From the IMG/VR virus record IMGVR_UViG_3300042288_001626: a stretch of 64,000 nt of DNA, one strand, 5' to 3'. The position numbers were made by a program, and so were the translations under genes. Origin of the DNA: a virus (Duplodnaviria; Caudoviricetes). The notes under the pieces are model-generated. The model saw only the letters and a program-made list of their open reading frames with translations, was not told the DNA's origin and did no database searches. Of the stretch, positions 62,118-63,150 are shown piece after piece (within the stretch, counting starts at the first letter, position 1; every line of letters begins with the position of its first letter).

Positions 62118-62714
62118 CTAGATCATGAACAAATTTTTAAACGTGGTATGCCCACGAAGCTTGTTCAAAAATGTCTGTACCATCATACCTGCCACAATAG
62201 TAGGTAGTGTGTGGCTGATATTTTCTGTCTTCTCATAAGCTAAGAGACACCCAGCTTCCTCTTTACTGTCGTTAATATATGGAAGCAGCTGTTCTTTTGG
62301 AATGTCGCTGTTGAACAAACAACCTTGCCTACTTGTACACCTTCCGTCAATCCAGAACAACCCGCTGTCTTTTTTATTCCAGCCATACTCATACAGTGCC
62401 TTACGAAAGGTCATGCTGTCAACACAGCAAAAGATCAAATCGTAGTTTTTAAAGTCACTCTCGGTCATTCTTCTTTTGTGTCCGTTGACAACGTACTTAT
62501 CTTCAAGAACTTCTACTTTGTACTTACCGATATCATCGAGCTTAAAATTTTGATGAAGTAGGTTCTTTACATCTACCGTGTCGTCGTCAAATAGGTCAAC
62601 AACAATATCCGCATAATTGAACTGCTTGCGATTAAAGCCATAGTCGAAAAAGATGGCTAGAAGGTTGCTACCGATGCCTCCTGCCCCAGCGATTGCTACT
62701 TTTTTCACGTTCAT
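62118..62714 (-). CDS. ThiF/MoeB/E1-like adenylating enzyme
   Basis: AGAGGIGS, DDDTVDVKNLLHQ, GKYKV, CVDS, WIDGR; candidate catalytic Cys in EAGCL. Confidence 0.88.
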   Translation of the reverse strand: MNVKKVAIAGAGGIGSNLLAIFFDYGFNRKQFNYADIVVDLFDDDTVDVKNLLHQNFKLDDIGKYKVEVLEDKYVVNGHKRRMTESDFKNYDLIFCCVDSMTFRKALYEYGWNKKDSGLFWIDGRCTSRQGCLFNSDIPKEQLLPYINDSKEEAGCLLAYEKTENISHTLPTIVAGMMVQTFLNKLRGHTTFKNLFMI

Positions 62715-62721
62715 GTTGATA

Positions 62722-63150
62722 TTACTTTGACTGACTTGTGCTCAGAACCGTATCGAGACTGGTATATGTGGCTACAGATTGCTCATTTCTCCAGGTAGAA
62801 TATGAGAACGTTTTGGTTGCTGCCGAATAAATAACGTTGTGTTTGAATCCTCTAAACAACACAGTAAGGTCTAGCTGGCTGGGGGTGGCAGAGAAGGATG
62901 GATGCGTATGGAAACTAGCAAACAGTCTCCATCCTTCTCTGATGCGTTCAATTATCTTTTCTCCCAACTCTGCTCGATTAGCAACATACAGCCCGATTGC
63001 TGTATGTGTTCCTGCGTGGTCGTTTCTTAGAGGCACAAAAAGGAAGCTGTCGTCCTTCTCTAAAATCACGCCTCCTTTCTCCTCATCAGAACCTCCGCAA
63101 ATCTCCGCAGCCTCTAGTATAACTCTAGAGAAGTTGATTGAAGACATCAT
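62722..63150 (-). CDS. JAB/MPN+ (JAMM) metalloprotease
   Basis: EEKGGVIL plus complete H-x-H-x7-S-x2-D motif (HTHPSFSATPSQLD). Confidence 0.85.
   Translation of the reverse strand: MMSSINFSRVILEAAEICGGSDEEKGGVILEKDDSFLFVPLRNDHAGTHTAIGLYVANRAELGEKIIERIREGWRLFASFHTHPSFSATPSQLDLTVLFRGFKHNVIYSAATKTFSYSTWRNEQSVATYTSLDTVLSTSQSK

Follow-up and report, generated by a model that had tools for sequence, protein, structure and literature searches.

Why does a bacteriophage keep, among its replication and recombination genes, an E1-like activating enzyme next to a protease of the kind that processes ubiquitin-like proteins (Ubls)? The question is raised by a stretch of 64,000 nucleotides (nt) from a large, uncultured lake-water phage of the Caudoviricetes (IMG/VR record IMGVR_UViG_3300042288_001626; this whole stretch is called the window below, and coordinates refer to it unless another locus is named), which encodes on its minus strand a 198-amino-acid (aa) ThiF/E1-like adenylation core, here termed mini-E1, and a 142-aa JAMM/MPN+ metalloprotease (JAB). 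Based on the gene content, the sequence motifs, the protein folds and a linkage conserved across phage lineages, we propose, with a probability of roughly 0.55, that E1 and JAB are the enzymatic half of a phage-encoded Ubl conjugation cassette that comprises, in gene order, the Ubl itself, a 685-aa partner protein, an optional exonuclease-like protein, JAB and E1. What is new here is that such a system is phage-borne, with a minimal E1, no canonical E2 and a new, obligatory partner.

The cassette and its conservation

The cassette genes lie as follows, the last two on the metagenome contig L013, which carries the sequence beyond the window end:

62118-62714, minus strand: mini-E1 (ThiF/E1-like adenylation core), 198 aa; Pfam ThiF
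62722-63150, minus strand: JAMM/MPN+ metalloprotease (JAB), 142 aa; Pfam Prok-JAB and motif
63147-63821, minus strand: DnaQ/RNase H-like exonuclease-fold gene, 224 aa, optional; weak RNase_H_2 match
63825-63998, minus strand, cut by the window end: C-terminal, last 57 codons of the 685-aa partner, recognized from the L013 continuation
L013 6423-6758: Ubl gene, beyond the window
L013 6833-8890: full gene of the 685-aa partner

Transcription on the minus strand of the window runs from the partner end through the 224-aa gene, JAB and E1 to a 354-aa gene, a 400-aa gene and smaller genes. As the initial annotation had read it, the E1 start follows the JAB stop after 7 nt, and the stop of the exonuclease-like gene overlaps the JAB start in an ATGA. 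The same annotation saw no Ubl in the window, which is true of the window itself, although the genome does encode one. A look-up with the E1 sequence from the window led to L013, a 75.8-kb contig. Over the 10.6 kb that were compared, the two agree at 99.99% identity, so L013 continues the window past its end; its gene order is DnaB, PolA, GP88, 271 aa, 110 aa, Ubl, 685 aa, exonuclease-like, JAB, E1, 354 aa and RecA. The Ubl gene thus escaped notice because the window stops about 2 kb (1.96 kb) short of its start.

The linkage extends well beyond this one genome. In IMG/VR, 12 loci on viral contigs of 120-190 kb have a matching gene order, and the Ubl profile retrieved 18 further loci, all with the order GP88, (271 aa), Ubl, partner, (exo), JAB, E1, 354 aa. 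Ubl and partner genes lie upstream of JAB in all 30 related loci that reach far enough upstream, the E1-JAB pair is syntenic in all relatives examined, and its recurrence (12 + 18 loci, same order) is far beyond chance. Five relatives are represented by near-complete genomes of 182-204 kb (completeness 93-100%; terminal repeats in one), and all of them keep the cassette, with exactly one ThiF and one Prok-JAB gene each. Among relatives, the E1 (66-77% identity) is as conserved as RecA (69-83%), whereas JAB, Ubl, partner and the exonuclease-like protein are less so (32-65%).

One relative, present as both L010 and L027 (a single contig), has its E1 gene interrupted between DDDTV and DVKNLLHQ (L010:8682-10456) by an insertion of ~1.2 kb, which carries a 323-aa LAGLIDADG endonuclease open reading frame (ORF) and in which Rfam detects no group I intron. 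LAGLIDADG-type elements tend to settle in conserved genes. Both the RecA-like conservation of the E1 and the invasion of its gene argue for a core rather than an accessory function of the cassette.

The phage itself is recurrent: 20 lake-water metagenome runs from 19 studies (2018-2025) hold at least part of the stretch, 13 of the 20 contain half or more of its sampled words, and four may be the source sample; no RNA run is listed as containing it. A cultured-phage collection contains no DNA or protein match to the region, the E1 or the JAB, and matches RecA at 26-30% identity only.

Related arrangements are found in other phages. Locus L043 encodes a DNA ligase, a 668-aa partner homologue (hhalign 99.5%, E 5.8e-23; both conserved cysteines kept), a 73-aa Ubl homologue that ends exactly in GG (87%, E 4e-6), an 85-aa ORF and a mini-E1, with no JAB in the stretch read, and a second contig has an L043-like layout of OB-fold SSB, 607 aa, 70 aa, 76 aa and E1. 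L035 combines a 658-aa partner homologue (96.7%, E 3.7e-10; Cys616 kept, Cys392 not) with a 120-aa ORF and a mini-E1, and in L044 JAB directly precedes the mini-E1. The recurrent pair is that of partner and E1 (window clade, L043, L035); in the window clade and in L043 a Ubl accompanies it, and JAB is an addition. In three phage contexts the neighbours of the cassette are DNA enzymes: DnaB/PolA/RecA, DNA ligase, and an OB-fold SSB. Separately, at L035:509-2527 a second ThiF-like gene (225 aa) stands by that of a 375-aa protein whose N-terminal part carries a JAMM motif (HKH-x7-S-xx-D).

Ubiquitin-like protein and JAMM protease

The L013 Ubl has 111 aa and the C-terminus ...MLTGVVMGG-GLLN, and the ORFs at the same position in relatives (85-156 aa) end in ...L(T/S)G-x-x-x-GG plus a few residues. 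The Gly-Gly is invariant in 20 distinct Ubls from the 30 loci, whereas the tails that follow it are unconserved and number 0 (three cases), 2, 3, 4, 5, 8 or 9 residues. An AF2 model from a 21-sequence alignment has a beta-beta-alpha-beta-beta-alpha-beta core with pLDDT 82-87 and a floppy C-terminus. Structural comparison by VIA-align places it closest to PB1 (Z 6.0; root-mean-square deviation (rmsd) 2.9, 72 aligned), with UBX, SUMO, FAT10, ISG15 and ubiquitin at Z 3.9-5.0; Foldseek returns PB1, ubiquitin-like and SUMO domains at E 0.03-0.3 and no match at E <= 0.001; and look-alikes in the Atlas fall into ThiS, Lambda_tail_I, PB1, TGS and SUMO clusters. Modest as these scores are, the lists agree almost throughout on one fold class, nearly all of the top PDB neighbours being beta-grasp domains, and we take the protein for a beta-grasp Ubl. 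By sequence, the protein belongs to no Pfam family and matches ISG15 in the PDB only at a sub-significant E of about 0.5-0.8, and its profile matches neither E. coli ThiS nor the Prok_Ub of PRTRC, the ParB-related, ThiF-related cassette of plasmids and integrative and conjugative elements.

The Ubl gene is set off from the genes downstream. At a distance of 16-51 nt past the Ubl stop, 19 of 20 loci have a hairpin of 11-16 bp (-21 to -29 kcal/mol) with a U-run after it, and the stem sequences vary from locus to locus; the L013 copy (L013:6786-6816) is a GC-rich hairpin of 13 bp with its U-run, ~30 nt past the stop. The element resembles a terminator or attenuator, conserved in this position between the Ubl gene and those of the enzymes, and fits a Ubl made in excess over the downstream enzymes.

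A processable modifier of this build would also suit a sulfur relay, in which JAB would expose the GG, E1 would adenylate it, a host persulfide donor would convert the Ubl to a thiocarboxylate and the 685-aa protein would, as the last step, thiolate a nucleotide, tRNA, DNA base or cofactor. We regard this explanation as unlikely, even though the second helix of the Ubl model is typical of ThiS/MoaD-like beta-grasp proteins and the Atlas look-alikes include the ThiS cluster just mentioned. The CysO/Mec+ and QbsE/QbsD sulfur systems have the same layout, with an E1, a JAB and a masked-GG carrier and without an E2; no canonical E2 was found for the phage cassette either, the phage moreover carries tRNA genes, and the cassette sits among nucleic-acid enzymes. 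None of the five near-complete genomes, however, encodes a rhodanese, a cysteine desulfurase (Aminotran_5) or a PP-loop ATPase of the TtuA/TilS type (ATP_bind_3), nor is Pfam ThiS present in any of the five, with positive controls for all four families; host enzymes could substitute for these sulfur genes. The lack of a profile match to E. coli ThiS argues in the same direction, as does, weakly, the terminator, which suits a consumed modifier better than a recycled carrier.

The protease next to the E1 belongs to Pfam Prok-JAB (PF14464; 28.3 bits against a cut-off of 25, E 1.7e-6). Its JAMM motif (E23/E24, H81-x-H83-x7-S91-xx-D94) is complete, as initially annotated, and invariant in 11 relatives, and AfJAMM is matched in the PDB at 0.003. 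JAB is predicted to cut the tail after the Ubl Gly-Gly and possibly also to deconjugate; three relatives keep it although their Ubl has no tail past the GG, which suggests such a second role.

Deconjugation could also be turned against the host, if the cassette served to interfere with Ubl-based immunity of the Bil or type II CBASS kind, for example with JAB stripping host conjugates off phage proteins or CD-NTases, or with the phage Ubl and E1 competing with or mis-loading the host components. Bacterial Ubl systems do act in phage defence (PMC10557695; bioRxiv 10.1101/2023.09.04.556158), and PADLOC weakly matches both enzymes to CBASS (JAB to the Cap3-type JAB at 5.9e-5, E1 to the Cap2-type E1-E2 at 1.5e-6). 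We nevertheless consider a counter-defence role distinctly improbable: the cassette is fixed in the replication/recombination module of every relative rather than in a variable accessory island, with an E1 as conserved as RecA; a full set of Ubl, E1 and partner exceeds the needs of a deconjugase; and L043 keeps precisely this set without a JAB in the stretch read.

Mini-E1, partner protein and the proposed cycle

The E1 is a member of the ThiF/E1 superfamily, with 66.3 bits to Pfam ThiF (PF00899; cut-off 28.1, E 2.9e-18), the motifs GAGGIG and DxDxV...NLLHQ, and residues K66, D99 and R104; the GAGGIG loop and D99 are invariant among 129 distant relatives. The initial annotation, which had described nucleotide-binding and NLxxQ motifs, a candidate catalytic cysteine and no CxxC, is borne out by these matches: the protein has no CxxC pair, and the candidate catalytic Cys156 is invariant in 25 close as well as the 129 distant relatives. 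The arginine of the NLxRQ motif is replaced, by His54 in this E1 and by Tyr in 86 of the 129. Both the N-terminal Arg-finger helix and the C-terminal Zn/CxxC domain are absent, the last residue, 198, falling at position 208 of the 238 in the ThiF profile. The protein belongs to a large family of mini-E1 enzymes of roughly 190-205 aa: a profile search over 1.84 billion representatives yields 196 proteins (E <= 1e-10) that are mostly 185-205 aa long and align end to end. Across 129 of them, G-x-G-G-x-G, K66, D99, R125 and Cys156, the last within (G/S)-(G/S)-C, are invariant, and Q55 is kept in 121.

The affiliation of this family was approached by profiles and by phylogeny. The best NCBIfam match of the E1 is PRTRC_ThiF (TIGR03736, 2e-12), which covers residues 5-132 only and, at 47 bits against a cut-off of 144.75, does not confer membership; ThiF models come next, MoeB, the 6A-MBL cap2_3 protein and UbaA match weakly only, and TcdA is not among the NCBIfam matches. 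Profile matches in the PDB (UBA3, UBA2, ThiF, UBA5, Cap2, MccB, TcdA) are all weaker than 1e-3. Phylogeny was addressed with a quick maximum-likelihood tree that takes in 62 rows and has its root on E. coli TcdA; its branches are long, its three named references are E. coli TcdA, ThiF and MoeB, and Cap2 and BilD are left out. E. coli ThiF pairs with MoeB in it (SH-aLRT 94), and a separate clade (94) unites a PRTRC-type group with P0275 (90) and the mini-E1 clade (80). The P0275 gene sits in a PRTRC cassette (L036) of ParB, Prok_Ub, 363 aa, Prok-E2_D, JAB and ThiF, and the window's E1 group (99) is nested in the mini-E1 clade on a long branch, near members with partner and Ubl neighbours. The E1 groups neither with TcdA nor with ThiF/MoeB, and the tree, with which the profile ranking agrees, tentatively excludes both affiliations; its separation from ThiF/MoeB is a further point against the sulfur relay.

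The same tree bears on the possibility that the E1 acts on a non-Ubl substrate, by adenylation or cyclisation of a peptide or nucleoside in the manner of MccB, PaaA or TcdA, the Ubl being an incidental neighbour. While MccB and TcdA do appear among the weak PDB sequence matches and the minimal E1 is devoid of the usual Ubl-holding domain, its position apart from TcdA, the persistence of Ubl, partner and E1 together in L043 at only 24-30% identity, and the invariant GG end of the adjoining Ubl, a classic E1 substrate, leave very little room for this explanation. Complex prediction of the E1 with the mature Ubl scored 0.08 against a mark of 0.32, which counts neither for nor against binding.

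The partner protein, 620-730 aa in relatives, yields an AF2 model (57 sequences; pLDDT 87, pTM 0.54) with several well-formed domains and no Foldseek match in the PDB; in the Atlas, DUF4132/DUF7737 proteins head a list of weak matches (TM < 0.3). The C-terminal 146 residues alone match Pfam DUF7737 in 27 of 28 members, with a best E of 8.9e-6 that is below the gathering score, and this part of the model consists of a helix (543-575), five short strands (578-615), the invariant Cys616 and two helices. In VIA-align, 11 of the 50 best rows are UEV, E2, RWD or BubB chains placed on residues 545-662 (VPS37A Z 4.5, rmsd 4.7, 93 aligned; Vps23 UEV 4.2; E2S 4.0; Ubc9 3.9; BubB 3.6), although Z-scores of 3.4-4.5 can, by the tool's own notes, reflect merely a common arrangement; elsewhere, a YkuJ-like match to residues 322-393 reaches Z 5.1, and none stands out. 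The C-terminal domain has no sequence match in the PDB, the partner profile matches neither the PRTRC E2 nor the PRTRC 363-aa protein, and structure searches reveal no known sulfurtransferase fold, which again speaks against the sulfur relay. The absence of an E2, reported from the window by the initial annotation, holds for Prok-E2_D, found in none of the five near-complete genomes while a control genome was positive, and is qualified by the weak UEV/E2/RWD/BubB likeness of partner residues 551-662 (Z 3.4-4.5). We give the hypothesis that the partner is an E2-like carrier about one chance in three.

Taken together, these proteins can be arranged in a conjugation cycle, of which we infer every chemical step as well as the targets. 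The Ubl precursor would extend past the invariant Gly-Gly by a short variable tail, which the JAMM protease would remove; the protease may later reverse conjugation. The mini-E1, with ATP, would adenylate the exposed Gly carboxylate and probably transfer the Ubl onto its Cys156, from where the activated Ubl would reach the 685-aa partner, which would act either as an E2-like carrier via Cys616 of the DUF7737-like domain or as the main substrate. From the partner, the Ubl may pass to lysines of phage or host proteins tied to DNA replication and recombination.

Conjugation is favoured by the nearest E1 group on the tree, which includes an E1 (P0275) from a Ubl/E2/JAB cassette, by the invariant cysteine in the partner, by the predicted terminator after the modifier gene and by the retention of JAB with a GG-ending Ubl. 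Furthermore, a dedicated masked-GG Ubl and a conserved partner upstream favour the phage's own cycle over the use of a host ThiS/MoaD carrier, so that, among the three roles first proposed for the pair, a conjugation cycle of the phage's own is preferred, and counter-defence and tRNA or sulfur roles, left without positive evidence, are less likely. The initial idea of a Ubl-type E1 paired with a deconjugase is supported. The most extensive version of this proposal, a self-contained phage pathway in which a minimal E1, a JAMM protease, a Ubl and a DUF7737 E2-like carrier modify replication/recombination or host proteins, is advanced only tentatively and strikes us as rather doubtful.

Several points weigh against conjugation. 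For none of the family members is a conjugate, a thioester or a cleavage on record, and no canonical E2 was found, the E2-like view of the partner drawing on the Z 3.4-4.5 matches without sequence support. The replaced NLxRQ arginine, His here and Tyr in most relatives, departs from the E1 motif, and since the enzyme lacks the N- and C-terminal elements with which other E1-like enzymes hold ATP and Ubl, its activity cannot be assumed. Finally, because a masked-GG Ubl with JAB and E1 also fits sulfur carriers, the anatomy alone cannot separate conjugation from sulfur transfer.

Genomic surroundings and known systems

Downstream of the E1, the window continues with the following genes:

61004-62068, minus strand: 354-aa gene
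59796-60998, minus strand: 400-aa RecA/UvsX-like gene; Pfam RecA, PHROG UvsX-like
58565-59068, minus strand: 167-aa RuvC-like / Holliday-junction resolvase gene; PHROG
57807-58568, minus strand: 253-aa gene with a TTG start; weak Ogg-HhH glycosylase match

The RecA-like and RuvC-like neighbours were correctly recognized at the outset, with the 400-aa protein matching Pfam RecA at 2.3e-22 and PHROG at 2.6e-34 and the 167-aa protein matching PHROG at 7.5e-9. An SSB-like label for the 354-aa protein could not be verified, as it has no match in Pfam, NCBIfam, PHROG or the PDB; it is 57-76% identical among relatives, and its features include an acidic linker rich in Pro and Ala and a conserved C-terminal motif, LPPNPM...MSREEA-x-RFI. 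In the interval between this gene and the E1, where the window has a 49-nt gap, some relatives carry an ORF of ~100-112 aa without family match (L002:10610-10948, L005:3579-3881, L007:10549-10869, L010:10463-10795).

The exonuclease-fold label of the 224-aa gene stands on a weak match to Pfam RNase_H_2 (E 0.0094). About half of the related cassettes do without the gene; where it is present, its DnaQ-type motifs DIET / FNGxxFD / YxxND are intact in L007, L011, L028, L032 and L034 and degenerate in the window clade (HIET / FRGxxFI / YxxNT), where all three are lost. A Cys-rich protein of the GP88 family (PF17338) is encoded near the Ubl cassette in two phage lineages (L013:4443-5168, L043:9830-10396). 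Farther downstream in the window, the 253-aa gene (Ogg-HhH, E 4.7e-4) overlaps the end of the RuvC-like gene and is followed by two SAM-methyltransferase-like genes (55729-56962, minus strand), and six tRNA genes (31411-32148; 55176-57071, minus strand) are of the types Arg-TCT, Leu-TAA, Met (two), Pro-TGG and Thr-TGT.

Among described systems, bacterial operons of E1, E2, JAB and Prok_Ub were predicted in 2006 (Iyer, Burroughs, Aravind; PMC1779556). The PRTRC cassette resembles the phage locus in that its E1 provides the best NCBIfam match and adjoins the mini-E1 clade on the tree, and, in L036, in its gene order of small Ubl, protein(s) of no known function and JAB directly abutting the E1. 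Unlike it, the phage E1 is ~50 residues shorter and remains far below the PRTRC_ThiF cut-off given above; L013 has no annotated ParB, Prok_Ub or Prok-E2; the phage Ubl and JAB have no detectable similarity to their PRTRC counterparts in profile comparison; and the phage cassette includes the 685-aa DUF7737-like partner and is carried in the replication module of a lytic-type large phage.

The Bil system (BilABCD: Ubl, E2, JAB, E1) shares a Ubl with a C-terminal Gly, an E1 and a JAB deconjugase (PMC10557695; bioRxiv 10.1101/2023.09.04.556158). The phage cassette differs from it in having no recognisable UBC-type E2 and an E1 reduced to the 198-aa core, and in being phage-encoded and fixed among replication genes rather than in a defence island. 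Type II CBASS likewise pairs an E1-type adenylation domain (Cap2) with a JAB (Cap3), in line with the weak PADLOC matches. Cap2, however, is an E2-E1 fusion of ~580 aa whose substrate is the CD-NTase C-terminus, whereas the phage E1 is free-standing, a separate Ubl is present and the called genes of L013 include no CD-NTase.

Closer in their lack of a canonical E2 are the E2-independent Ubl systems that double as sulfur carriers, such as Thermus TtuB/TtuC, CysO/Mec+ and QbsE/QbsD, in some of which a JAMM protease trims the residues after GG. The archaeal SAMP/UbaA/HvJAMM1 system, too, consists of Ubl, E1 and JAMM protease without a canonical E2 (PMC4443979). The E1s of SAMP/TtuB/CysO/QbsE-type systems are full-length and MoeB-type, often with a rhodanese domain, in contrast to the mini-E1, and the phage genomes lack sulfur-relay genes and have the extra, obligatory 685-aa partner.

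On the viral side, lambda and T1 encode in TAPI (Ubl) and TAPK (JAB + NlpC/P60) a phage beta-grasp protein with a conserved C-terminal Gly by a JAB (PMC1779556), but this tail module has no E1, whereas the present cassette has one and lies in the replication/recombination module. The nearest viral precedent is the prediction of E1-like genes in Asgard archaeal viruses (bioRxiv 10.1101/2021.07.29.454249), and Ubl systems directed against phages are described in bacteria as Bil, CBASS type II and Bub (PMC10557695, PMC10097602, PMC11601596). Full-text literature searches returned no account of a comparable Ubl/E1/JAB cassette encoded by a phage, nor anything of use on DUF4132/DUF7737.

Such kits have so far been known as bacterial anti-phage defences and not as core phage equipment. 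The present cassette forms part of the replication module in abundant lake phages and turns up again in other phage lineages, and a conserved Ubl/E1/JAB set on the phage side would show that bacterial viruses, like eukaryotic viruses, own such machinery. The mini-E1s, at ~195 aa the smallest E1-like enzymes seen so far, are suited to mechanistic work, and all four proteins are small enough, or modelled well enough, for expression and assay without phage culture. The cassette moreover offers a candidate carrier domain (DUF7737) and a testable link of protein modification to phage replication and recombination. Should such a self-contained pathway prove real, bacterial viruses would have their first complete Ubl pathway, and the widespread bacterial DUF4132/DUF7737 proteins a first functional handle.

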